This document shows positions 8,781 to 38,568 of a DNA stretch of 64,000 nt, piece after piece. The DNA is from Verrucomicrobiia bacterium (GTDB lineage Bacteria; Verrucomicrobiota; Verrucomicrobiia; JADLBR01; JAIBCM01). The position numbers and the translations under genes were made by a program. Position 1 is the stretch's first letter, and the number at the start of each line of letters is the position of its first letter. The DNA is taken from positions 4,925 to 68,924 of the forward strand of contig JAWLBA010000001.1 of assembly GCA_041395165.1 (NCBI GenBank). Reading direction: 5' to 3'. The notes below the pieces were generated by a model. It had not been told where the DNA came from and did not search any database. It saw only the letters and a program-made list of their open reading frames with translations.

Positions 8781-9386
8781 TTGGTGGGTGTTCAAATCGG
8801 AGCTACTAAGGATGTTTGGGGGTCAGAAAAAGTAGGAAATTTAGAGATTAGAGGAACGCTTGAGTTTCGCGAAAAAATTAAGCAAGCCATAGCAAATGGA
8901 GTAAAACGCCTGAATTTAAAGAGGTGTTTGAGAAAGTTAAAAATCTGCGAACATTTCAATGCGATTGAAGAAGTCCGAGACAAACATAGTGAGGCAGCAC
9001 CCAACCCTAAAGACCCTGATAGTTGGCTTGACTCTATGAATGGTAAAGGGACTAAAGCGGTGATAAGAATTAATTTAGATGATGCTGATAAAGGCCCCGT
9101 GGATGATAGAGGTTGTAAAAAATCCTCTATAGAAGCTGTTTTAGGCCACGAATTGGGTCATGCAGTTGACTTAAACGAGGGCAAGAATGACTATAAGCCT
9201 TATGGGAAAATTCCTCCCGGTGAAAAGACTGCAATGAGAGTTGAAAATGCAATTCGAAGGGATCAAGATCTTGTTCCTCGTTCGGATTATAATATTGATC
9301 CCTCAACGACGTCAGAAGCGCCAGGTTGCAGGCCTCCTCCACAAGATATAACGCCGCCTCCAAGAGGGCCTGTTATGAGCCCTTAG
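8781..9386 (+). CDS. small protein with an HExxH zinc-metallopeptidase motif (AVLGHELGHAVD); probable N-terminal extension from 8708 in another frame
   Basis: The 201-aa ORF has a TTG start, a single HELGH motif and a Pro-rich C-terminus. Upstream ATG 8708 opens MGVLKKNGVDVQESKENPVWAMLAIGG in a different frame that ends just where this ORF begins. A 9-A homopolymer lies at 8719..8727. Confidence 0.5.
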   Translation: MVGVQIGATKDVWGSEKVGNLEIRGTLEFREKIKQAIANGVKRLNLKRCLRKLKICEHFNAIEEVRDKHSEAAPNPKDPDSWLDSMNGKGTKAVIRINLDDADKGPVDDRGCKKSSIEAVLGHELGHAVDLNEGKNDYKPYGKIPPGEKTAMRVENAIRRDQDLVPRSDYNIDPSTTSEAPGCRPPPQDITPPPRGPVMSP

Positions 9387-9955
9387 ATAGTTTGGTGTCT
9401 AATTTGTAAGATTAGAATTCCTGTTTCACCATAATTTTTTTGGCGTAGAATTTCAAAAGGAACCAATTTTTTGGGCGATAAAGCCGTGAAATATTCCAAA
9501 ATAAACCATCCTTCGGGCGCTAACCAGGGTGCAATGGCATGGAATAAGTTTTGATGAAATTGTTCGGCCTCATCAGCTTGTTTCATATTTTTTTGATAAG
9601 GTGGAGTAGCAAAAATAAGTGAGTAAGGAGTGGGTGAATTTTTTAGAAAAGTGAAAACGTCTTGTTGCACGATTTGCGCCTGTTCTTGAAATTTGGTATG
9701 TATTAAATTTTGCTTAAGAAAATTGGCAATTTGACGATCGCGTTCGACAAAGGTGATCGATTTTGCTCCACGACTTAATGCTTCGATCCCTAGCGAGCCT
9801 ACGCCACTAAAAAGATCGAGAATTTTAACATCAAAAATTTTATCGCCGAGCATGGAAAAGAGCGCGCCTTTCACCTTGTCTTGAATGGGGCGCAAAAGAG
9901 GCGATTTAGGCGCTTTGAGTTGCAAGCCGCCGGCGGTTCCAGAAATTACGCGCAT
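9383..9955 (-). CDS. rsmD: 16S rRNA (guanine966-N2)-methyltransferase RsmD
   Basis: 190-aa ORF with RVISGTAGG...LDLFSGVGSLGIEALSRGA...ATPPY motifs of RsmD-type SAM methyltransferases. RsmD is usually adjacent to coaD, which here lies 6 kb away. Confidence 0.85.
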   Translation of the reverse strand: MRVISGTAGGLQLKAPKSPLLRPIQDKVKGALFSMLGDKIFDVKILDLFSGVGSLGIEALSRGAKSITFVERDRQIANFLKQNLIHTKFQEQAQIVQQDVFTFLKNSPTPYSLIFATPPYQKNMKQADEAEQFHQNLFHAIAPWLAPEGWFILEYFTALSPKKLVPFEILRQKNYGETGILILQIRHQTI

Positions 9956-10026: not shown

Positions 10027-11052
10027 ATGTTAAAACAAATCTTAGTTGCGTGCTTAACCTTTACTTTCATTTCCGGTTTACTAGCCGATTCGGTGGTTTT
10101 AAATCCAGTTAAGGATAACGCGATTTACGAGGAGGGCGATTTGAGCAATGGCGCGGGTGATCATCTTTTTGCCGGACAAAATAATAATGGTAACAACCGC
10201 CGATCTTTTTTGGCTTTTACTTTTAACGCCCTTCCAACCAATGCCATTGTTACGAATGTTGTTTTGCAAATGACGAATTCGTTGAGTGCTCCGGGAAGTG
10301 GAGGACGCAATATTGCCTTGCATCGTTTGACGGGTGATTGGGGTGAGGGAACTTCCGACGCGCTGAATGCTGAAGGACAAGGAGCTGCTGCTGCGATGGG
10401 TGATGTGACTTGGACTAATGCCTTTTTTGGCGGTGCGCTTTGGACTACACCGGGTGGCGATTTTGTTGTGGCGCCTAGTGCGGTAGCATTAGTGAATTTG
10501 GAAGGCAATTATAGTTGGAGTTCGGTTGGGTTGGTAAATGATGTTAATTTTTGGCTAACTAATGGCAGCGCAAATTTCGGTTGGATTGTGATCGGTGACG
10601 AAAGCGCGACTCAAACTGCAAAACGTTTTGATAGTCGCACCAGTGGTAATCCGCCGGTTTTAACCATTGGATTTACGACAAATGCGAATGAAGTGGTGAA
10701 TCCTATTTTATCGGGTGTCACATTTGAAAAATTGAGACCCAAAACCGGAAAGCGACGTAATTTTGTGGCCTCGAAAGGCATCAAGGTAAAAGGTCGCGTT
10801 ATTACGACCAATACGATTACAGCGGGCACCGCATTTTTACAATTTGGCGCAAGTAACCAGACGGCTCCCGTTTCGTTGACCTTTAAAGATTTAAAGCAAA
10901 AAGGTGTTCTTGTGGGCAAAAAATTCAAAGCCAAAGGTGTCGGAGTTGGTTCGCCAGCCGGTGAGACGGCTTATGATGTGGTCATTACAGTTGGCAACGG
11001 ATTCGCCAATGCTTCGGTGACCAATACCATTGGGCTTTCTAAGATCAAATAA
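10027..11052 (+). CDS. secreted beta-rich protein, tandem paralog A (341 aa, signal peptide)
   Basis: N-terminal hydrophobic signal MLKQILVACLTFTFISGLLA. Conserved blocks NALHRLTGDWGEG, VTWTNAF, TPGGDF and GWIVIGDE are shared with the next gene. Confidence 0.75.
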   Translation: MLKQILVACLTFTFISGLLADSVVLNPVKDNAIYEEGDLSNGAGDHLFAGQNNNGNNRRSFLAFTFNALPTNAIVTNVVLQMTNSLSAPGSGGRNIALHRLTGDWGEGTSDALNAEGQGAAAAMGDVTWTNAFFGGALWTTPGGDFVVAPSAVALVNLEGNYSWSSVGLVNDVNFWLTNGSANFGWIVIGDESATQTAKRFDSRTSGNPPVLTIGFTTNANEVVNPILSGVTFEKLRPKTGKRRNFVASKGIKVKGRVITTNTITAGTAFLQFGASNQTAPVSLTFKDLKQKGVLVGKKFKAKGVGVGSPAGETAYDVVITVGNGFANASVTNTIGLSKIK

Positions 11053-11097
11053 TTTTTTCGTCGACGCGAAGAGGAATTTCGCTAGAAAAGCAAAGTT

Positions 11098-12096
11098 ATG
11101 AAAAGAATTTTGCTAGCAGTTAGCCTATTGATTCCTACTTTATTTTTGCAGGCCGCCACGTTGGATTTAGTTCCCACAAAAGACACCACGATTTATCAAG
11201 ATGGTGAATTAAGTAATGGCGGAGGAAGCCGATTAATTATTGGAGCGGATGGCATGCAAAGTCCGAGGCGCTCTCTGTTACAGTTCGATTTTAGCGCGAT
11301 CCCTGTTGATGCAGTCATTACGAATGCTGCCTTGAGACTGGATTGTGTGAGTGTGAATATGGTTGGACCGCGAGTGGCTAATTTGCATCGCTTGACACAG
11401 GCTTGGGGCGAAGGCATTGCCGTGGCAGTGGATCCGCAAATTAACGGTTCCCCCGCCAACAATGGAGATGCGACTTGGACCAATGCTTTTGTGGGGTCGG
11501 TGGCTTGGTTGAATCCGGGAGGCGATTTTGTTCAGGCGCCGAGCGCGACGGTGAATGTGGATGATGTGGGCGCTTATGTTTGGAATTCAGCTCAACTGTT
11601 AGCAGATGTGAAAACGTGGGTGACGAATGCGACAGCGAATCAAGGATGGATTGTTATCGGTGACGAAACAGCAGCCAATACTATTAAAAGTTTTGCCAGT
11701 CGTTCTTCGACTAATTCGCCTGTATTAACCGTTGGTTTTTCTACGAATGTGATTTTATCAGGCGTTACCTTTGAAAAATTGCGTCCGAAAACGGGTAAGA
11801 AAAAGAATTTTCGATCCTCCCGTGGCATTGTTGCTAAGGGGCGCGTGATTACCACAAATCAGTTGGATGGCGGTTTTGCGTTTCTGGTGATGGGTTCCAA
11901 TCAACCGCGCATGTGCCTTTTTCTAAATTCAAAGATTTGAAGAGGAAAGGCAAAGTGGTGGGCAAAAAATAAAGGCGAAAAAGTAGGGGCAGGTGTCTGG
12001 AAAGGTAAAATCGCTTATCAAGTGGTTTACGTTGTGACCAATAGTATTGGAAGTGCGTCGGTCACTAATACTTTAGCCACTTCGAAGATTAAATAA
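11098..12096 (+). pseudogene. secreted beta-rich protein, tandem paralog B; 3' end disrupted by two +1 frame changes
   Basis: ORF 11098..11940 ends ...AFLVMGSNQPRMCLFLNSKI*. Frame +1 continues HVPFSKFKDLKRKGKVVGKK*. A further +1 frame gives KGEKVGAGVWKGKIAYQVVYVVTNSIGSASVTNTLATSKIK* (to 12096). This is collinear with the paralog A C-terminus ...SLTFKDLKQKGVLVGKKFKAKGVGVG...VTNTIGLSKIK. Confidence 0.65.
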
Positions 12097-12168
12097 TTTT
12101 TAGAACCTAAAGCAGTAAATGCGTCTAGGCATAAGGTGTAAAAATTAAATTTATTTTTTCAAAACAAT

Positions 12169-12174
12169 TTGACA
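12169..12174 (+). promoter_or_regulatory. sigma70-like promoter TTGACAAGAAG-N12-TTAGTA inside an AAAACAATTTGACAAG motif
   Basis: Sequence at 12161..12200. Lies about 55 nt upstream of an ATG at 12230 that opens a degraded N-terminal region of the 12390 gene. Confidence 0.3.
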
Positions 12175-12389
12175 AGAAGCATTTTCTGAATTTAGTAACC
12201 CAATTATTTATTGTTTTGATTGAATTATGGCTGTAGGTTGTTCGTGGTGTTTTTCGTCGTGCTAGGCGTTATTTTTTGGGAGTTTCTCTCTCTGATGCTG
12301 TAGAAGATGCTATTAAATTGAAAATCAAAGTGATTAACAAAAAAATTTGATGATATACATCAAGAAATTGATAAAAAATTGAAAAAAAT

Positions 12390-13205
12390 TTGGGTGAAAG
12401 ACCTCTTTGGGATGAAAGCAGAGATTCTACTACAATCATTTTAAGGCCTCATAATAAGTTTATTAAAGACGTTGAAACAATCAAGCTCACAACGGGAAAA
12501 CATTTGTTGGAAGTAAAAGAGATAGAAACGTATTTGCAGTATTTGGCTAAACAATTGAATGAATCAGGAGGTGCTAGTGCAAAGGAAGCGAAAAAGCTTT
12601 TAGCAAAAGTGGCTGAATTGCGTAAACACGCAGAAAAAGCTGATCAATCGGCTAAAAGAGCTTTCGATATTGCCAGCAACCATGGTCAACGTTCTCAAGT
12701 AGTCAGTATTGTAGCACTTGGTGAGGCAAAAGATCATATAGCACAAGCCCAATCCATTATGTCCCAAATTTCAAATGATCCTTCTTTGAGAAATGCTATA
12801 TTGGCAGGGGCTGCTGCAAGCTATAGTCCAGGCACTTTAGAAGTGGTGACAGATGGGGTTTTGGATGCGATTGATTATGGCTTGGAAACCGCGGATGCTG
12901 TGGAATGTCTTTCTACGTTAGGAGTGAGTTGTGCGGTAGATGCCGGATTGGAGTATGCTTTGGATAAAGCGATTGAAGTTGCTGCCCCCGTTGTAGAGCC
13001 TATTGCTAGCGAAGTGATGGACCGAGGAGGTCAGGGCATGGCAACAGTTGTCGGAGGTGCTAGTGCGTTAGTCAATAAAGCAAGTAAACAACTTAACGAA
13101 AAGGTGGGAACGAAGTTGGAAGCGGCGTTTCAAGTTCCTCAGAAAGCGGCTTACAACGTTGCGGAGCGTGCCACTGGTGGGTTGTGGCCAAGTTTTTCAC
13201 CTTAA
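12390..13205 (+). CDS. distant member of the minus-strand paralog family (C-module VECLSTLGVSCAVD...NEKVGTKLEAAF...GGLWPSFSP); N-terminus probably degraded upstream (12228..12389)
   Basis: 271-aa ORF with TTG start. Alignable to P2 and P3 in the C-module (AETVECLGGYNPFC / ADAVECLSTLGVSC; GEKAGAKLQEAF / NEKVGTKLEAAF). Upstream, three short coiled-coil-like ORF fragments lie in different frames. Confidence 0.55.
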   Translation: MGERPLWDESRDSTTIILRPHNKFIKDVETIKLTTGKHLLEVKEIETYLQYLAKQLNESGGASAKEAKKLLAKVAELRKHAEKADQSAKRAFDIASNHGQRSQVVSIVALGEAKDHIAQAQSIMSQISNDPSLRNAILAGAAASYSPGTLEVVTDGVLDAIDYGLETADAVECLSTLGVSCAVDAGLEYALDKAIEVAAPVVEPIASEVMDRGGQGMATVVGGASALVNKASKQLNEKVGTKLEAAFQVPQKAAYNVAERATGGLWPSFSP

Positions 13206-15514: not shown

Positions 15515-17854
15515 ATGAGTGGTTTAGCGACTGGAGCGAGAGTGGTTCGTGGGGTGGGTATTGTTGCGGGTGCTACGAGTCGCGTGAGTCGAGCAAAAAG
15601 ATCATTAGATTTAGTCTTAAGGCGCATGGTGGATGCGGAAGCTCGAGTAACAAGCGCCAGAATTGCGTTGGCTGGTGTTGATGGCGCAACTTCTACTGGC
15701 GCTGGCTATCTTGCTAGACAGCGAGTTGCGGTTGCTTTGGCCAGACGGAATTATTCGAATGTAGCAAAGCGTGGTGCTGTGGCAGCGGAGCGCTTTGCAG
15801 AGGCTAAAGAAGCAGAAGCGCTTCGCTTAGCGGAAGCAGCTCGGACAGCTCATCGAACGGGAGCGCCTAGTGATGTTATAGCTCGTTTGGACTGTATTGA
15901 AGGGGAAAGAGTAGCCCATGAAAAAGTGGTTAATGCAAGGGAGACAGTGGACAGGGCTCATGGTGATTGGTCAGTAAAAAATAACAGTCCAACTGCTGTT
16001 GGGGAGCGTGAAAAGGCTCAAAAAATTTTGGAAAAAGCGGAACGTGATCTTGCAGAAGCAGAGGCTGATTTCGAAATGAAACGTGCTTTAGCGAAACAAG
16101 CTCGTCAGCGGCGTTTGGCCTCAGTTCAAGGACGTCGTATTTCAGAAGATTTCGGTATAGCTGAGCCTGCTAATATTTTTGAGAGCGCAGAAGCCGCGGC
16201 AGTTGAGGCTGAGGAAGCTAGAAAAATGGCTGATCAATTATTTCGTGAGTCAAGAAGTGCTGAAGCAGCGGTAATAATCGCAGAAAAAGGAATTTTTGAT
16301 GATTTAGAAGCAGGCGTAATCGAAGGTGTGCTTGGGAGAGCTACTGCTGGTGATGCGGTGGCGCAGCAAGAAGTGAAGCAAATTGCAGGCATCGCGAGGC
16401 GCGAAGCAGATAGATTAGTTGCTGAGGCTGATATGCTTCAAGAGAGTCTATTAAGGGCTGAAGCAAATGCTGAACAAGTAACCGCTGACTATAACAGATT
16501 AAAAGAAGCTGTTGAAGGATACGAAGCTACTGCGAATTCTACAGGTGAAATACCAACCGATATTAATCAATTCATTGCGCAAGCGGAGGTAGCTAAAGAG
16601 GCAGCGGATCAAGCTGCATTTTATCAACTTCAACTCGGAATGAGTGAGGTGTTAGATGAAAAAGCAACATTGGAATTATTTAATGCCCGTATTGCGTTGT
16701 CTAATGCTCAAACAAGAGCTGCACGGGCCATTGGGGTTGCTGCTCGGGCTGAATATGTTTCAGCTAGCACGGGAGCAACTTTAGAAGAAGTGAATCAAGC
16801 CATGGGACGTTTGTCTAGAGCTCGCTCGGCCCTTAAAAGAGCACGTTTTCAAGCTGATGAAGCTGCTACAAAAGCAAAAAATTTAGATGATTGGGCAGCT
16901 AGGCCTGGAGCTACCGAGGCAGATCGTGCAGCAGCCCATGAAGCCAAACAAAAAGCGGGTCAAGCGGCTGAAGCGGCTGGGTTAGCCAAGTTTCAATACG
17001 ATATGGAACGTCGCGTTGCTAGGGGTTTGACCATTGCGGCAGGTGTAGCAGCTAGCTATTCTATTCCAACAGATGCTGAGGCATTAGTGGAGGATGCTCA
17101 ATTTGAGTTTAGGGATGCGAGTGTAAAAGCTCGGCTTGCAAACGAGAAGTTTTCAAAAGTAAAGGGATCGGCAGCTTCGGGTGGATCGGTCGATTATGGC
17201 ATGGCGATGGAAGAGGCGAAAAAGGCTTCTGAAGAAGCTCAGAGAGCCAGGAATGCTTATGTTCAGGCGCGCGTGACCGAGCAACGTCGTAAAGAACTTG
17301 GTGAATGGGCTGACACTTATTCTGAGGATGTGCCAAGTGAAGAAGGAGTTTCAGTTTTAGATGGAGAAAGTGGTGCTTCTACAGATTTTTCCGCTGGAAC
17401 TTTGGATCAGGTAAGTCTTGATGGCACAGGTTTGGTAGCTTTAGGACAGCTGATTTATGAAGTGCCTGGTCTTGTGCAAGCAACTGGCGAAGGTTTGAAC
17501 GAGTTGAGTAATGGTATAAAAGAAGAACTGCTAAAACGAGAAGTGGCTTATTACAATTTTAAAACAGCCCGAAAAGTTGAGGATGATATCGAGATTGAAG
17601 AAAGCAGTGTGCATCCCTCTCCTGTTGTTGTTCCTAATCAAGAGGAGCCTTTGGATCGAAGAACGCTTTTGGCTGAAGCTGGAAGTAAAAAAGATTTGGG
17701 TCAAAAAGATAACAGTAGAGTATGGACGGCAATTGAGGAGGCGAACCAATCGGTAGATTCTTCTCTTGAAAACAATATGTGCTCAGCCGATGAACCCAAT
17801 ATGAGTGTTGATCCTTCTTTGCAACCGCAATTATCCATGGCTCCTAAGGTATAA
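15515..17854 (+). CDS. large Ala/Glu/Arg-rich coiled-coil protein (779 aa), family 2, C-terminal tail ...NMSVDPSLQPQLSMAPKV
   Basis: Long low-complexity helical ORF. The C-terminal 60 aa align with the C-terminus of the 18864..20435 ORF. Confidence 0.75.
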   Translation: MSGLATGARVVRGVGIVAGATSRVSRAKRSLDLVLRRMVDAEARVTSARIALAGVDGATSTGAGYLARQRVAVALARRNYSNVAKRGAVAAERFAEAKEAEALRLAEAARTAHRTGAPSDVIARLDCIEGERVAHEKVVNARETVDRAHGDWSVKNNSPTAVGEREKAQKILEKAERDLAEAEADFEMKRALAKQARQRRLASVQGRRISEDFGIAEPANIFESAEAAAVEAEEARKMADQLFRESRSAEAAVIIAEKGIFDDLEAGVIEGVLGRATAGDAVAQQEVKQIAGIARREADRLVAEADMLQESLLRAEANAEQVTADYNRLKEAVEGYEATANSTGEIPTDINQFIAQAEVAKEAADQAAFYQLQLGMSEVLDEKATLELFNARIALSNAQTRAARAIGVAARAEYVSASTGATLEEVNQAMGRLSRARSALKRARFQADEAATKAKNLDDWAARPGATEADRAAAHEAKQKAGQAAEAAGLAKFQYDMERRVARGLTIAAGVAASYSIPTDAEALVEDAQFEFRDASVKARLANEKFSKVKGSAASGGSVDYGMAMEEAKKASEEAQRARNAYVQARVTEQRRKELGEWADTYSEDVPSEEGVSVLDGESGASTDFSAGTLDQVSLDGTGLVALGQLIYEVPGLVQATGEGLNELSNGIKEELLKREVAYYNFKTARKVEDDIEIEESSVHPSPVVVPNQEEPLDRRTLLAEAGSKKDLGQKDNSRVWTAIEEANQSVDSSLENNMCSADEPNMSVDPSLQPQLSMAPKV

Positions 17855-17911
17855 TAAATAGTTGTAACGCAGTAATCTTTATTTGTCCCAGAGGCATTTT
17901 ATTTTTAAAAT

Positions 17912-17917
17912 TTGACA
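17912..17917 (+). promoter_or_regulatory. sigma70-like -35 TTGACA in AAAATTTGACAA; a TATATAAT lies at 17944..17951; 74 nt upstream of the 17991 start
   Basis: Identical 12-mer to the one at 15444..15455. Confidence 0.35.
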
Positions 17918-17990
17918 AAGATTTTTTATGAGTTTTATTGCTTTATATAATAAGGAAACTATTTTGTCTTAAATTGGAAGGATAAATCTA

Positions 17991-18815
17991 ATGGCTGTTC
18001 CTGCTATTCTTCGTGGTGCTGCGGCAGTTGCCCGCTTGCGCCGTCTTCAAAGAGCCGTTAGCCAAACCGGAGGGCGTGCTATGGTTCTTAACTCACGGGC
18101 CTATGCTATTGAAGGTGGGGTCACTGCTTTTCGAACGACGGCATCAGGAAGAGGAGCGATTGCAGCCGTTAATCCTCGTGTGGGCTATGCAATAATGAGA
18201 CGACGTGAAGCTCTTATGCGAAGAGGTCATGCTACGGTTTCACAACATTATGCGGATGCCCTCGTGGAGCAAGCAAATCGTCTCAGAGAAGCCGCTCAAG
18301 CCGTTAAAGTAAGCGCAGATGAGGCGAGACAAGGTCAAAGGTTCTCTGAACAATTGGACCGCGTTGCGCAAGAAACCGCGGAACATGTGCGGCATCCGAC
18401 AGATGAGATTATTGCTAAATATTCGGCTTATCGTTTTGATCCTGGCACACCTCGTCAAGAGGTAATAGATTTTATCATACAAAAGGCTGAGGCTGATCGA
18501 GTTTATGCTGATCAGTTTAGGCGTTATGCTGAAAATTTGGCTATTAAAGCTCGGGAATCAGCTAATAGACTGCGTGAAATTGAGCAAGAAATTGTAGAGG
18601 CTCATGGTAGGCCTTTAACTTTGGATGAGCTTGAAGCTTTGGCAATTGAAAAGGCTCAAGACGCTGAAAAGGCAAGAGAAGCAGTGAAAGTTTATAATAA
18701 AAAAGCGGATGAAGCTGGAGCCGAAGCACTAGAGGATGCGGATAAAGCGCTTCAAACGGTGGTGGCGAGCGATGCGGCTTTAGCTCAAAGGGAGGCTGAG
18801 GCTTTGCTGATATAG
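17991..18815 (+). CDS. Ala/Glu/Arg-rich coiled-coil protein, N-terminal part of a family-2 gene (274 aa)
   Basis: The N-terminus (AVPAILRGAAAVARLRRLQRAV) resembles the N-terminus of the 779-aa protein. It is in the same reading frame as the following ORF, separated from it by two TAG codons. Confidence 0.6.
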   Translation: MAVPAILRGAAAVARLRRLQRAVSQTGGRAMVLNSRAYAIEGGVTAFRTTASGRGAIAAVNPRVGYAIMRRREALMRRGHATVSQHYADALVEQANRLREAAQAVKVSADEARQGQRFSEQLDRVAQETAEHVRHPTDEIIAKYSAYRFDPGTPRQEVIDFIIQKAEADRVYADQFRRYAENLAIKARESANRLREIEQEIVEAHGRPLTLDELEALAIEKAQDAEKAREAVKVYNKKADEAGAEALEDADKALQTVVASDAALAQREAEALLI

Positions 18816-18863
18816 CTGGGCGAGGTGCTTCGGTGGAAGAGACAATTTTAGAAGTCCAAATCC

Positions 18864-20435
18864 GTGACGCTAATCAAAGGGCTACATTACTTGGCTGAGA
18901 GAATGCGTGAACATCCGCGTCCGGCATCTGAACTTAGAGCAGAGGTTCAAACAGCTCGTGATGCACTTAGATTAGCGCGGGATCGAGAGAGTTGGGTGCG
19001 GGGTGAATTAGCTACCGCTGTGCCTGGTTCGCGGAGAGCTGAGGAATTAACTAAAAAATTGCGTGACCTTGAGATAGAGATTGATACGCATAGTCAAGTA
19101 GCAAACTATGCCCAATACGAGGCAGAGGCTGTGGAAGATTTAGCCTATGCGCTAAACAATAAACCATCTTATGTCGATGGTGCGAGGTCTAGAACTGCTT
19201 CAGCGTTTGAGTCAGAAGCTCGTATTAAATTGATTGCGAGTGGGCAAACCGATCTCGAAGTTATCAACACTGCTGCTAGGCGTGTGGCTGAAGCGCGTGT
19301 GGCGTTAGTCGAAGCGCGGATTGAAGCTGTGCATGCGGCAGAGCGCGCTAAGGAAACTCGAAAGATTGCTAATCGTCCTGGCGCGACTCATCCTCAACGA
19401 GCATTAGCTGAAGAGGCAGAAAAAAAAGCTACTGAAAAAGCTCAAGCATTGGAACACGCTAACGAGGCCTACACTAAACAAGTTACAACCATTAGTGTTG
19501 GTGGTATTACTTTGGCAACGCTTATTACAGTTCCCAGTAAAGCTGAGGCAGCGCGTGAAGAGGCTCAAAAGGCGGGGGCCGAAGCCAGAATGATTAATGA
19601 AAGGCTAGCTCAGGTGCGTGAAGCGGCTGCTCGTCCTGATGCTGGATTGAGTGAACTTGTGACGGTGGTCGGCGCTGCATTTAAAGCGCACGCGGCTAAA
19701 GAGAGTGCTGAACGTGCTTATGATAAATATGTAGAGGCTCGTGTGGATGAACAGATCGCAGCCGAGGAGGCTGCCAAAGTAAAAGTAGAACAAGAAGCTG
19801 AAGCTAGAGGAGAAGCTTATTTTAAAAGCACTGCAGAAGGCATGGCTTGGGAAGGCATGAAGTGGGTTGGAAAAGGTGTTATGACTGGTCTCCATTATAC
19901 CGAGGAAGGGTTGGCTTACGCTGTGGATGGGTGGGGCTATATGATGGGAATGCCTAATCCTATAGCTAGTCCCGACACTAGCGTTGACATAGGTCATGGC
20001 TTACTCGCAGCTCAAGATGCTATCATAGAACATGTAGCTGCGCCAGTCGCGATCGCAACTTATGAAGGAGCTGTTGCTGAAGCCAATCCTATGGCTCCAC
20101 TTGAAGAGGCCAGACAACGTGAAGAAAAAGCTGCAGAAAGATTTGCTAGCGCTGCTGAAATCAGGGACGATGATGAAATTGACAAGTCACTCCAAGGTAA
20201 GTTTCCTAATGTTATCATCATTCCTGATGCGGAACCTCCAGCACCAACTTTAGTGGCAGAAGCTAAAAGAAAAAAGAGAAGCGATGAAGCATGGGCCAAA
20301 ATTGAAGAAAAAGCGCAACAGTCCATTGAAAGAAATATGTCTCTAATCGCAGAAGGTGAACCTGAAGGGGAACTTAATATGAGTGTTGATCCTAGTTCGG
20401 CTCCTTCGCCTTCAACCTCTGCGCCGAAAGTTTAG
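18864..20435 (+). CDS. Ala/Glu-rich coiled-coil protein, C-terminal part of a family-2 gene (523 aa, GTG start), tail ...LNMSVDPSSAPSPSTSAPKV
   Basis: The C-terminal block WAKIEEKAQQSIERNMSL...NMSVDPS...APKV matches the 779-aa protein. Confidence 0.6.
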   Translation: MTLIKGLHYLAERMREHPRPASELRAEVQTARDALRLARDRESWVRGELATAVPGSRRAEELTKKLRDLEIEIDTHSQVANYAQYEAEAVEDLAYALNNKPSYVDGARSRTASAFESEARIKLIASGQTDLEVINTAARRVAEARVALVEARIEAVHAAERAKETRKIANRPGATHPQRALAEEAEKKATEKAQALEHANEAYTKQVTTISVGGITLATLITVPSKAEAAREEAQKAGAEARMINERLAQVREAAARPDAGLSELVTVVGAAFKAHAAKESAERAYDKYVEARVDEQIAAEEAAKVKVEQEAEARGEAYFKSTAEGMAWEGMKWVGKGVMTGLHYTEEGLAYAVDGWGYMMGMPNPIASPDTSVDIGHGLLAAQDAIIEHVAAPVAIATYEGAVAEANPMAPLEEARQREEKAAERFASAAEIRDDDEIDKSLQGKFPNVIIIPDAEPPAPTLVAEAKRKKRSDEAWAKIEEKAQQSIERNMSLIAEGEPEGELNMSVDPSSAPSPSTSAPKV

Positions 20436-21546: not shown

Positions 21547-21655
21547 AAAAACTAAAGATTAACTGACCTTACTCTTTTTCAAGTTAAAAAGAAAATTATG
21601 AATTTTAAATTTCCATTTTTGAGTTATAGTAATAAGATTATGCAAATAAGATATT

Positions 21656-33414: not shown

Positions 33415-34339
33415 GTGCATGTTATTAGCATGGAGGAGAAGAACGTTAAATACGTTAGCCGCTGCTTTGATTGCAGTATTCGATTAACTGGTTTTTTACT
33501 AGGGGCTCTTGCTTTGTTTTTTTTAGAAAATTCGTCACTAGCGGTTAATGCTTTAAACCGCGCACGATTTACGGAAGTAGTCAATCAAGTAGAAGTGATT
33601 CCTCCTAATGACGCTCCTAAAAAACAGGCACAAGTTGGCTCTCTTTTTCAAATGCCTGAAATTTTACAAACGGGTAGCCGATCCCGTGCAGAACTGGTTG
33701 CAGAAGATAAAACCGTAACGCGTGTGGGAGCCAATACCATTTTTTCCTTTCAACCTCGGGATCGTACGATTCAATTGAAACGTGGCAGCCTGCTTTTTCA
33801 TGCTCCGAAAGGGCGTGGTGGCGGAACGATTCAAACCGCTGCCGCCACTGCCGCGGTGTTGGGCACAACGATTATTGTTATGACCACCGATGACGGTGGC
33901 TTCAAATGTCTCGTATTGGAAGGCCAAGGAGAAGTGACTTTGCCCAATGGATTTCGTCAAAAAAGTTAATGCCGGCGAGTTGGTTTTTATTCGGCCGGGC
34001 TCCAAAAAAATTTCCAAACCCTTACCCTACAATCTTTCGCAACAGGTGGAAAATTCCTTGCTCGTTCAAGGTTTTTCACATCCGCTACTTTCTTTAAATA
34101 AAATTAGTCATGCGATTAATGCGCAACGACAAAATTTTCCATATCTTGCCTACGAATCTGAAGCTCCATTTATTGCTAATTTTCAACATCAAAAAGATTA
34201 CGCTTTGGTGGATCCCAATTCGCGAGTTCATTTAAATCCCACTTCTCAAAAAGAGGCGCCAAAACCTGAGCCGCCCACCACTTTGCCTCCACCCACACGC
34301 AAAAATCCTCCTCGACTTCCACCCCCTATTCCAGGTTAA
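33415..34339 (+). pseudogene. FecR domain protein (anti-sigma-like, TM segment, Pro-rich C-terminus) with a frameshift near 33945..33965
   Basis: ORF 33415..33969 ends ...GEVTLPNGFRQKS*. The offset-2 ORF from 33947 reads MDFVKKVNAGELVFIRPGS..., which is the continuation expected for a FecR domain. An A6 run lies at 33959..33964. Confidence 0.6.
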
Positions 34340-36994: not shown

Positions 36995-38170
36995 TCACTC
37001 GCGCGATAATTCATCTATCTTCTCTAAAAGTTCGTTTTTCGAAAGAATTTTTTTCTTTTTCCCTTCTCCATTATTTTCTTTTTCTAAAACACGTTTAAGC
37101 AAGGGTTCAGGAGAGCCAATCAAACGTTCATGATAGAGCGTTTGCCAGGGTTCCGATAATTTAGTTTTAGGCAACCATGCTTCATGTTCCAATAAAATAT
37201 GTGTCACACCATATTTTTCTAAAAATTGTTGAATTACTTCTTTTTCAGTTGCCGTCCATACTACAAAACTATCATTCAACCGCTCTTTGGCTGCATGATA
37301 AAAAGTTTGATGATAAGGCAAAGACAATTCAATCGAAGCGATAATCGGGGTTCGAACTAAAAGAGGTAAAGCGTCACCCAATTGACTTGCCGGAAATGTT
37401 GCAACAATCGGTCCAGGAACAGAAACTAACTTTTCTCGAACTAAATCGGCTTCTGACTCCTTATGATAGTTTTGGTTGCTGAAATGATAATTCATTAAAA
37501 AAAGCAATATTGGAACCAAACCACATCCTAAAAACAAACGCCGATTCCAAACAGAAACAACTAACAATCCCGAAATGATTGGAACACTATAATAAATATA
37601 ACGATTGGGATGAAACAAACGAAACCAAAACGCGTGAGCGAGAAAAAACAAAAAAAAGCCACTTGCTAATAAAATAATTAGCCACATCCATTTTCGGCCT
37701 AAGAACTCTTCACGAGAAAAAAATCGTGTTTTAAAGCCACACAAAATTCCTAACCCCAAAAATAGCCAGGCCGCTTGGACATCACGCGTCATAAAACCGC
37801 TGCGTGTTCCGGTAAACCAAAACTCCCAAGGATTCGAAGAAAAATAAACGGCACGACCGCCTTTGTGAAATTCTGGCAACGTAAGCGCTTGCGATCGAGT
37901 AATAGTAGGAGCAAATTCAGCTAAGCGATGAGATTGATAATAAGCGACCCCTAGTAAAACTCCAAAACTTAATCCTACAACTAAACTGATTTTCCAAAAT
38001 CGCATTTTTTTTTGAAAAAAATTTTCTATTCCCAAAACCGCGAGCAAGACAAATCCTAAAACTGCTAAAGGCGCGTAAAAAGTGCCGTCAAAATAACGAC
38101 ACAAGCTAGTCGAATCAGATGATTGGCTAAGATGGCTTCTAACATCATTAAAACACATAAACCCGCCCAA
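36995..38170 (-). CDS. polytopic membrane protein with C-terminal soluble domain (391 aa), possibly a GtrC/ArnT-like glycosyltransferase partner
   Basis: Multiple hydrophobic segments. TTG or internal ATG start. Located directly downstream of a GT2 polyprenyl-phosphate glycosyltransferase. Confidence 0.5.
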   Translation of the reverse strand: MGGFMCFNDVRSHLSQSSDSTSLCRYFDGTFYAPLAVLGFVLLAVLGIENFFQKKMRFWKISLVVGLSFGVLLGVAYYQSHRLAEFAPTITRSQALTLPEFHKGGRAVYFSSNPWEFWFTGTRSGFMTRDVQAAWLFLGLGILCGFKTRFFSREEFLGRKWMWLIILLASGFFLFFLAHAFWFRLFHPNRYIYYSVPIISGLLVVSVWNRRLFLGCGLVPILLFLMNYHFSNQNYHKESEADLVREKLVSVPGPIVATFPASQLGDALPLLVRTPIIASIELSLPYHQTFYHAAKERLNDSFVVWTATEKEVIQQFLEKYGVTHILLEHEAWLPKTKLSEPWQTLYHERLIGSPEPLLKRVLEKENNGEGKKKKILSKNELLEKIDELSRE

Positions 38171-38277
38171 GCTCGAGGCGTGCTACTGATTAAATCATCA
38201 CCACTCCACAAAAAAGCCTGGATAAAAGCTACAAGAAAAAGGTTTTGGCAAAAATTTCCTTTTTAAAAAGAGGTTGC

Positions 38278-38568
38278 TCAAACGAATGACAAAAAAGTAA
38301 CTAACCAGGCGATGAGAAGCGGTTGCCCCCAACGCGCCCATTGTAAGGGAGAACAAAAAAAAGAAGTGAGCTCATTTAAAAATTTGATTCCTAAAGGAAC
38401 AGTAAGTTCAAAATAATGGCCAAAAAAATTGTCGACATGTTGCAAACCGAGCACATGTTGCCGCATGTCATCTTGAAATGTGTTCTGAACATCTTCGCTC
38501 AAATGCAAAAAAATATGGATCGCATAACCCAGCAAAGCTGGAATATAAAATACCCATTTTTTTTTCAT
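38278..38568 (-). CDS. small membrane protein (96 aa), possibly GtrA-like
   Basis: Hydrophobic helices. Overlaps the GT2 stop by 1 nt. Confidence 0.35.
   Translation of the reverse strand: MKKKWVFYIPALLGYAIHIFLHLSEDVQNTFQDDMRQHVLGLQHVDNFFGHYFELTVPLGIKFLNELTSFFCSPLQWARWGQPLLIAWLVTFLSFV

Follow-up and report, generated by a model that had tools for sequence, protein, structure and literature searches.

Two same-frame open reading frames in a Verrucomicrobiia genome appear to be one gene interrupted by a pair of opposite indels, probably consensus errors of the assembly

In the 64,000-nucleotide stretch of a Verrucomicrobiia genome analysed here (the window), positions 17991 to 20435 form one gene of about 814 codons that the deposited record breaks by a net loss and a net gain of one nucleotide. 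Both indels are probably consensus or assembly errors of this metagenome-assembled genome (MAG) rather than changes that the organism itself carries, a reading that we favour because the same contig arm holds many other gene breaks made of indels only, four of them in the essential gene coaD, with no sign of relaxed selection. The first-pass annotation of this DNA had pointed to two open reading frames (ORFs), 17991..18815 and 18864..20435, lying in one frame and interrupted only by TAG at 18813-18815 and TAG at 18849-18851, and direct reading of the sequence confirms it: from the ATG at 17991, this frame runs through the first TAG, LGEVLRWKRQF, the second TAG, KSKS and the GTG at 18864 to the stop at 20433-20435, 815 codons in total. 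Taken literally, nothing else interrupts frame 0, but to put it this way masks the true lesion, since the 78 nt around the two TAGs are out of register. The features on which the argument turns are as follows.

15515..17854, forward strand: intact tandem paralogue of 779 aa, same lineage-restricted family
17837..20347, forward strand: tract 99.6% identical to the genome of the sister MAG K1X66, over a background of about 88-92% (identity profile)
17991..18806, forward strand: N-terminal part of the single gene, read correctly in frame 0; record R3F23_00145, 274 aa
18805..18808, forward strand: indel site 1, TTGGTTGAT in orthologues and TTG-CTGAT in the window; GT>C at 18805-07, net -1 nt (DNA alignments and difference list)
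18809..18886, forward strand: frame-2 stretch of 78 nt (26 codons), whose homologous reading encodes DIAGRGASVEETILEVQIRDANQRA(T)
18813..18815, forward strand: first TAG, an out-of-frame triplet (gat-ATA-Gct) also present in intact orthologues
18849..18851, forward strand: second TAG, an out-of-frame triplet (att/gct-TTA-Gaa) also present in intact orthologues
18884..18885, forward strand: indel site 2, GCTGATTAC in orthologues and GCTACATTAC in the window; G>AC, net +1 nt, back to frame 0
18888..20435, forward strand: C-terminal part of the single gene, frame 0, deposited from the ATG at 18903 as R3F23_00150 (510 aa)
20385..20400 (at 20393), no strand: junction or synteny break, where homology to the K1X66 813-aa locus (contig 2) stops

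The earlier suggestion that the two ORFs are halves of one gene is borne out by the relatives. K1X66 encodes an intact protein of 813 aa (P0004, about 98% identity) that spans both halves, another intact protein of 805 aa (P0001) aligns at 69-73% identity over 100% coverage, and these two, like all other full-length members of the family (8 of 8), are single ORFs continuous over the point where the halves meet; the intact homologues measure 775-897 aa. The family is small, lineage-restricted, alanine/glutamate-rich and predicted to be all-helical, with only 10 representatives among 1.84 billion proteins searched, none of which, this record excepted, has the halves as separate proteins. The first-pass annotation had named two separate genes in relatives as the result that would speak against it, and the opposite was found. 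It had also invoked a 779-aa paralogue, which does exist directly upstream; the resemblance stands for the C-terminal part, of which about 430 residues are all that align significantly (BLASTP, 32% identity, E=1e-26), whereas for the N-terminal part it is weak in pairwise comparison and holds in the family alignment and profile. K1X66 shows the same arrangement, with an equivalent 775-aa gene (P0006) directly upstream of the intact 813-aa gene, and it carries a third paralogue of 897 aa. Searches for a family function in Pfam, NCBIfam and PDB sequences gave no match, the AlphaFold model is all-helical at low confidence (pLDDT 56, pTM 0.26), and NCBI annotates the two CDS of the split gene as hypothetical proteins. 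An ORF resembling an NleD-like M91 peptidase lies near the locus.

Homology changes frame exactly at the two length differences that are not multiples of three, as in a single gene interrupted by frameshifts, whether real or artefactual. The N-terminal part, whose exact sequence stands in NCBI as MEZ5404612.1, shows a single difference from the K1X66 gene (L004:10001-) over its 816 nt. Starting at indel site 1 (deposited bases 18804-18811, TTGCTGAT) the true reading frame is displaced from frame 0, and the peptide then read in frame 2 is 100% identical to the corresponding residues of P0004 and about 64% identical to those of P0001; beyond indel site 2 (deposited bases 18881-18890) the C-terminal part shares 98.6% protein identity with P0004. 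When the DNA is aligned, the window has a 1-nt gap at 18806 and a 1-nt insertion at 18884, and the intact-frame reading at the two sites is TTGGNTGAT and GCTNATTAC. Both changes are small delins, neither is a homopolymer slip, and no further lesion was found within the 2.4 kb of the gene. The window has the hexamer GCTGAT at site 1, whereas K1X66 has it at site 2; an explanation by a methylation motif or by this hexamer was considered and led to nothing.

The contexts of the TAG triplets, GATATAGC for the first and TTTAGAAG for the second, are invariant between the window, the K1X66 locus (L004) and three further loci (L001-L003), so neither TAG arose by substitution, and the nonsense disruption that had been proposed falls away: both triplets stand, out of frame, in the DNA of intact orthologues. 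The net loss at 18805-07 would shift reading into the +1 frame of the true gene for 78 nt, that frame, as any wrong one here, holds stops, of which the two encountered are the TAGs first noted, and the net gain at 18884-85 would restore the original frame. The two ORFs share a frame because the second change brings the original one back. The +1 frame of the gene holds one stop per 21 codons, TAG being the commonest, and 44% of its 26-codon windows contain two or more; two stops within 26 out-of-frame codons are ordinary and match chance expectation.

The split gene does not stand alone. By comparison with K1X66, eight genes of the window are broken (coaD, a 278-aa gene, a GNAT gene, a CBM96-like 333-aa gene, a 325-aa gene, the split gene of about 814 codons, FecR and a 527-aa gene), by at least 19 frameshifting indels of 1-2 nt, about half of which lie in A/T runs, and by no stop derived from a substitution; the converse, a K1X66 gene broken where the counterpart in the window is intact, was not seen. 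The gene coaD, identified by the equivalog TIGR01510, has four indels (at about 2650, 2734, 2853 and 2964) and lacks nonsense codons, and its dN/dS is 0.047. When the K1X66 frame is followed, dN/dS is 0.05-0.14 in the four conserved genes (coaD, CBM96-like, FecR and 527-aa) and 0.16-0.40 in the GNAT, 278-aa and split genes, the alignment of the 325-aa gene being unreliable. Breaks by indels alone, the lack of nonsense codons and the purifying selection kept are together the signature of assembly or consensus indel error. Seventeen of the 19 indels lie left of the junction at 20393 (15.7 kb aligned), against two to its right (25.3 kb), as would be expected if this arm of the contig were chimeric or of low quality. 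A point on the other side is that the 44 kb at the right of the window look clean, so that quality is not poor throughout the assembly. In three genes hit more than once the net length change is a multiple of three (-1/+1 in the split gene, -1/-1/-1 in the CBM96-like gene, +1/-4 in the 278-aa gene). A stop lies between the changes in the split and CBM96-like genes, so selection cannot have favoured restoration of their frames; the division of the 278-aa gene into two ORFs suggests a stop there too. Changes that cancel out are the behaviour of a length-preserving consensus artefact.

Indels that fragment genes are a known property of long-read assemblies and are addressed by reference-based correction tools (PMC12007338, PMC8103633). 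The indel errors of long-read or metagenome assemblies resemble ours in the intact reference orthologue and in homology that hops between frames at differences of 1-2 nt. The likeness extends to the many genes affected in one assembly, essential genes included, to the half of the indels in homopolymers, to the absence of nonsense substitutions and to unchanged signatures of selection. Unlike such errors, the two indels of this gene are delins outside homopolymers, and the damage is concentrated in one contig arm and not evenly spread. Sequence of the same species was not found across the genome, metagenome and protein collections searched: exact-protein look-ups of both halves gave no independent match from the same strain, GTDB representative genomes none to the protein patterns or to a 28-base DNA pattern, and JGI metagenomes none to the protein patterns or to a 48-base junction pattern. 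The other members of the PlsX cluster are only 93-94% identical and therefore belong to other species, and the literature search found nothing for the accessions and locus tags.

The alternative that deserves most attention takes both indels as real and the gene as a recently inactivated frameshift pseudogene, giving at most a truncated N-terminal product of 274 aa, the rest being without a good restart; we consider it possible but less likely. Across the tract 17837..20347, dS is 0.024 compared with 0.35-0.66 in flanking genes, and the only cluster of differences consists of the two indel sites and one substitution at 18826; such non-homopolymer delins, clustered with a substitution inside a nearly identical tract, could also stem from a real mutational event at the site, for example patch repair or a template switch. 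As the source of this cluster, gene conversion from a paralogue was rejected, the paralogues being far too divergent in the region. Seven of the eight isolated substitutions are non-synonymous and dN/dS in the tract is 0.40-0.70. Such values would suit a real pseudogene under relaxed constraint, and equally a family that evolves fast, the pair of intact paralogues having 0.29. Since the sister genome has two paralogues, redundancy could allow loss, and the locus is dynamic, with a tract of recent exchange between lineages and, where the gene ends 3', a junction formed by rearrangement. To the right of 20393 the sequence matches the 3' tail of the K1X66 897-aa paralogue and the convergent pabB (contig 6), and the GC skew passes from +0.2 to -0.2. 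Under the reading of real lesions, it is tempting to imagine that the gene was imported near-intact from the sister species, had its 3' end joined to the tail of the other paralogue through an inversion between paralogues that would account for the skew flip, and was then knocked out by the clustered delins, substitution and delins, although we regard this sequence of events as rather improbable; the junction may be a mis-join. Against a true pseudogene stand at least 17 further frameshifting indels, spread over seven more genes, which we place in the same contig arm and which include those of coaD, an indel-to-substitution ratio that would have to be several-fold above that of neutral decay, the restoration of frame despite the intervening stops, so that selection does not explain the pairing, and the absence of other lesions from the gene. 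Small indels against an intact orthologue, in a family whose paralogues may make a copy dispensable, do recall the frameshift pseudogenes of decaying bacterial genomes. Real decay normally adds nonsense substitutions, larger deletions and raised dN/dS, and these marks are absent from the seven companion genes, among which coaD is unlikely to be dispensable. Compensated frameshift mutations likewise bring a -1 and a +1 close together and restore the downstream frame. In true cases the shifted stretch must be open, whereas here it has two stops and the second change restores nothing.

The readings that accept the deposited sequence and call on translation fare much worse. Readthrough, the other possibility raised in the first-pass annotation, or reassignment of TAG would have both codons decoded into an 815-aa protein containing ...LLI-x-LGEVLRWKRQF-x-KSKSVTLIKGLH...; the common frame of the ORFs and a summed length like that of the paralogue agree with this. 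Yet the frame-0 peptide of 18807-18887, LGEVLRWKRQF included, is unlike that of any homologue, the orthologous peptide being in the other frame, and intact orthologues carry the TAG triplets out of frame. Moreover, TAG terminates 10 of the 47 long ORFs in the window, within which neither a tRNA nor an Rfam element was detected, and the RNA of this region folds less stably than its shuffled controls (z=+1.33). We give this reading almost no chance. No more credible is programmed ribosomal frameshifting, in which the ribosome would slip by -1 near 18807 and by +1 near 18886 and so make the full protein from the deposited sequence: exactly these two shifts do give a product collinear with the orthologues, but in the two closest relatives a single open frame covers the peptide, so that the shifts are not conserved. 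We found neither a slippery heptamer of the form X XXY YYZ at CTTTGCTGAT nor, at GCTACATTAC, a stop or rare codon prone to shifting, and there was no stimulatory structure. We know of no earlier case in which two programmed shifts of opposite direction lie 78 nt apart. Known cases of recoding (prfB +1 and dnaX -1 frameshifting, UAG readthrough or pyrrolysine) share with this locus the superficial picture of a protein-sized frame with stops; here the interruption is not conserved in relatives, slippery or shifty site, RNA element and machinery were all missing from the window, and the homology lies in another frame than a readthrough model requires. Recoding is excluded for practical purposes. 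Fission into two genuinely separate genes for an N-terminal and a C-terminal protein, as the two NCBI CDS would have it, is just as implausible: between the halves there is no promoter- or terminator-like site, no Shine-Dalgarno-like motif stands at proper distance before GTG 18864 or ATG 18903, what looks like a spacer is coding sequence whose homology lies in another frame, and no family member has a split architecture.

The biological weight of the observation is small, since there is no recoding here. What matters is that the deposited record splits one protein of about 814 aa in two and breaks at least seven other genes within the first 40 kb of the window, so that anyone counting genes, calling pseudogenes or inferring metabolism from this MAG would be misled, as by a CoaD that seems to be missing. 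When ORFs share a frame across close stops, a compensating indel pair should be the first thing tested, by translating the intervening sequence in the remaining frames. If the lesions were real, this verrucomicrobium, possibly a host-associated one, would have at the locus a hotspot of exchange and inactivation.

Reading from the ATG at 17991 runs into a TAG at 18813-18815, and eleven codons (LGEVLRWKRQF) separate this TAG from a second one at 18849-18851, after which KSKS precedes GTG 18864, the start of a 523-codon ORF ending at 20435; the whole occupies a single frame of 815 codons. The sequence read directly confirms the two same-frame ORFs and two TAGs described in the first-pass annotation. 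Immediately upstream (15515..17854, forward strand) is an intact paralogue of 779 aa, with which BLASTP gives a significant match over the C-terminal ~430 residues only (32% identity, E=1e-26).

Only two clusters were matched in a search of 5.8 billion proteins. One is P0001 (805 aa, encoded on three Logan contigs), 69% identical over 100% of the concatenated query. The other is P0002, the 510-aa C-terminal piece as it stands in NCBI (R3F23_00150, MAG Verrucomicrobiia bacterium), whose 90% identity cluster includes the 274-aa N-terminal piece R3F23_00145 and also the intact 813-aa P0004 (K1X66_03505) from a second MAG, GCA_019694135.1, hereafter K1X66. An exhaustive profile search found only 10 family members among 1.84 billion representatives, and all eight full-length members (775-897 aa) run unbroken across the junction, which falls within a moderately conserved motif, ALAQREA..I..IA.R.A. 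In both relatives the gene order is M42 peptidase, glyoxalase, rpe, a 775-aa paralogue (K1X66 only) and a single large gene, and this synteny agrees with one gene, not two. The earlier suggestion that the ORFs are halves of one gene is thus upheld by intact homologues and gene order alike; judged on sequence comparison, 17991-20435 is one gene. Its family is very narrow, each genome having at least three paralogues (775/779, 813 and 897 aa), and gave no match to Pfam, NCBIfam or PDB sequences; the AlphaFold model is all-helical and of low confidence (pLDDT 56). Members have in common an arginine-rich N-terminus, a C-terminal block AEGMAWEGMK.VG.G..TGLHY.EEG.AY and a tail NMSVDPS...PKV. The function of the family has no bearing on the finding.

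At the junction, intact proteins read REAE(A/T)LVDIA(G/Q)RGA...QIR.ANQRADYLAERMRE, whereas frame 0 of the window, the frame of 17991, reads REAEALLI*LGEVLRWKRQF*KSKSVTLIKGLHYLAERMRE, equal in codon number and unrelated in the middle. Read in frame 2, 18809-18886 gives DIAGRGASVEETILEVQIRDANQRA, identical to P0004. Alignment of the window with the K1X66 DNA (L004) and with the DNA of intact orthologues (L001-L003) results in two length differences:

18805-18807, site 1: GT replaced by C, net -1 (relatives TTGGTTGAT, window TTG-CTGAT)
18884-18885, site 2: G replaced by AC, net +1 (relatives GCTGATTAC, window GCTACATTAC)

The TAG-bearing octamers, GATATAGC and TTTAGAAG, show no variation among all sequences aligned, and intact genes read them as gat-ata-gc. 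and.tt-tta-gaa.; since they are invariant and read out of frame in intact genes, mutation of a sense codon accounts for neither TAG. The two TAGs are stops that come to light only in the wrong frame, which in this gene holds one stop per 21 codons, most commonly TAG, and at least two stops in 44% of 26-codon windows. With one base removed and one inserted, the restored protein has 814 residues and shares 98% identity with P0004. The proposal of nonsense disruption or stop-codon readthrough therefore fails, the triplets being out of frame in intact orthologues and the homologous peptide lying in frame 2.

Recoding is excluded by several observations. TAG ends 10 of the 47 long ORFs in the window. 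The closest relatives encode this peptide without any change of frame, so that nothing of the interruption is conserved. By reading of the sequence, site 1 has no slippery heptamer and site 2 no shift-prone codon context; the RNA at the site is less stably folded than shuffled controls (z=+1.33). Neither tRNA genes nor Rfam elements were found in the window, nor a promoter-like or terminator-like site between the halves, nor a plausible ribosome-binding site at GTG 18864 or ATG 18903.

From K1X66, about 85 kb of sequence (L004-L007) was aligned with the window, for which background DNA identity is 88-92% and dS 0.35-0.66. Eight genes are disrupted in the window but whole in K1X66, all of the breaks being indels of 1-2 nt:

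~2606-3099, reverse: coaD (TIGR01510), four frameshifting indels, dN/dS 0.047 in the K1X66 frame
7143-7976, reverse: 278-aa hypothetical gene, +1 and -4, dN/dS 0.29
8129-8594, reverse: GNAT acetyltransferase, two indels, dN/dS 0.16
11098-12097, forward: CBM96-like 333-aa gene, three -1 deletions, dN/dS 0.078
12221-13205, forward: 325-aa hypothetical gene, -2, +1 and -1, dN/dS 0.41 from an unreliable alignment
17991-20435, forward: gene of the finding, -1 and +1, dN/dS 0.40
33430-34339, forward: FecR-domain 303-aa gene, +1 in an A run, dN/dS 0.115
36998-38568, reverse: 527-aa hypothetical gene, -1 in an A run, dN/dS 0.135

The total is at least 19 frameshifting indels and no substitution-derived stop, and among the aligned genes we found no reverse case of a broken K1X66 gene with an intact window copy. 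Many indels in the companion genes sit in A/T runs; the CBM96-like deletions all lie within 75 nt, in runs of A3, A7 and A6. NCBI lists fragments of the six companion genes (coaD apart) as separate proteins, and in the largest GNAT ORF the Pfam match is confined to the C-terminal half. For coaD, pantetheine-phosphate adenylyltransferase, whose K1X66 orthologue matches TIGR01510 at 192 bits, the window has no ORF of at least 80 aa, homology is spread over three frames by indels near 2650 (+1), 2734 (A7>A8), 2853 (+2) and 2964 (T6>T4), and the K1X66 frame contains no stop. That an essential gene is broken by indels only points to consensus errors. Its 495 nt carry 8.5 non-synonymous changes, and four neutral indels should have brought tens, assuming the usual indel-to-substitution ratio of bacterial pseudogenes.

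The gene of the finding has a dS of 0.024 against about 0.5 in its neighbours. The stretch 17000-20390 is 96-100% identical to K1X66, compared with 88-92% elsewhere in the genome, and a second, milder high-identity patch covers about 10500-12250; the 17000-20390 tract implies either very recent exchange between lineages ~10% diverged or contig switching between co-occurring populations. At ~20393 (range ~20385-20400), within the last ~14 codons, the window departs from the K1X66 813-aa locus, the match passing from K1X66 contig 2 to contig 6. In both relatives a GT4 glycosyltransferase gene and then an amylase-family gene come after this locus; past ~20393 the window tracks the 3' tail of the third K1X66 paralogue (897 aa, L005:4400-7093) and the convergent pabB, with the same 44-nt overlap of the two as in K1X66. 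GC skew changes sign at the junction, from ~+0.2 to ~-0.2, and the 813-aa and 897-aa loci of K1X66 each lie in uniformly signed skew, of opposite signs. One reading that fits is a genuine inversion, brought about when inverted paralogues recombined; a chimeric contig join fits too and is slightly favoured, the indels being concentrated on the left arm (17 of 19 in the 15.7 kb aligned left of 20393, two in the 25.3 kb aligned right).

At 2-kb resolution, window GC skew is negative over 20-48 kb, positive over 48-60 kb and negative over 60-64 kb. An ~800-nt insertion absent from K1X66 (8598-9404) separates the GNAT and methyltransferase genes and carries a 201-aa ORF (8781-9386, forward) matching Pfam Peptidase_M91 ('Effector protein', NleD-like; E=1.6e-7, 32 bits, gathering score 25). 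Between pabB and a 1200-aa Calx-beta/FG-GAP protein K1X66 has a 542-aa PD40/Tricorn-like gene, in place of which the window has a 109-nt spacer (21547-21655), where a tblastn search for remnants was negative.

Neither reads nor an independent assembly of the same strain were found (genome, metagenome and protein collections), so the argument on error versus mutation is comparative. In three genes, namely the CBM96-like gene, the 278-aa gene and that of the finding, the net length change is divisible by three. The first and the last have stops between their indels, so that selection cannot have favoured frame restoration there; for the 278-aa gene we infer such a stop from its split into two ORFs alone. 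Length-cancelling indels are naturally explained by length-preserving local mis-consensus, and two papers describe gene-fragmenting indels as a recognised artefact of long-read assemblies (PMC12007338, PMC8103633). Indel-only breaks, length cancelling, left-arm concentration and this known artefact favour consensus error, and the -1/+1 pair is probably an error of consensus or assembly. It seems rather unlikely that the indels are real and the gene a frameshift pseudogene, though in favour of this both changes are small delins outside homopolymers and form, with a synonymous substitution at 18826, the sole difference cluster in a tract (17837-20347) that elsewhere matches K1X66 at 99.6% identity. 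Of the eight isolated substitutions there, seven are non-synonymous, but eight are too few to tell relaxed constraint from the fast evolution of the family, the intact paralogue pair having a dN/dS of 0.29. The feature is thus a pair of indels, -1 and +1, which most probably arose as an artefact of assembly: the interruption was rightly observed and rightly taken to lie within one gene, and it is neither a nonsense mutation nor a readthrough site.
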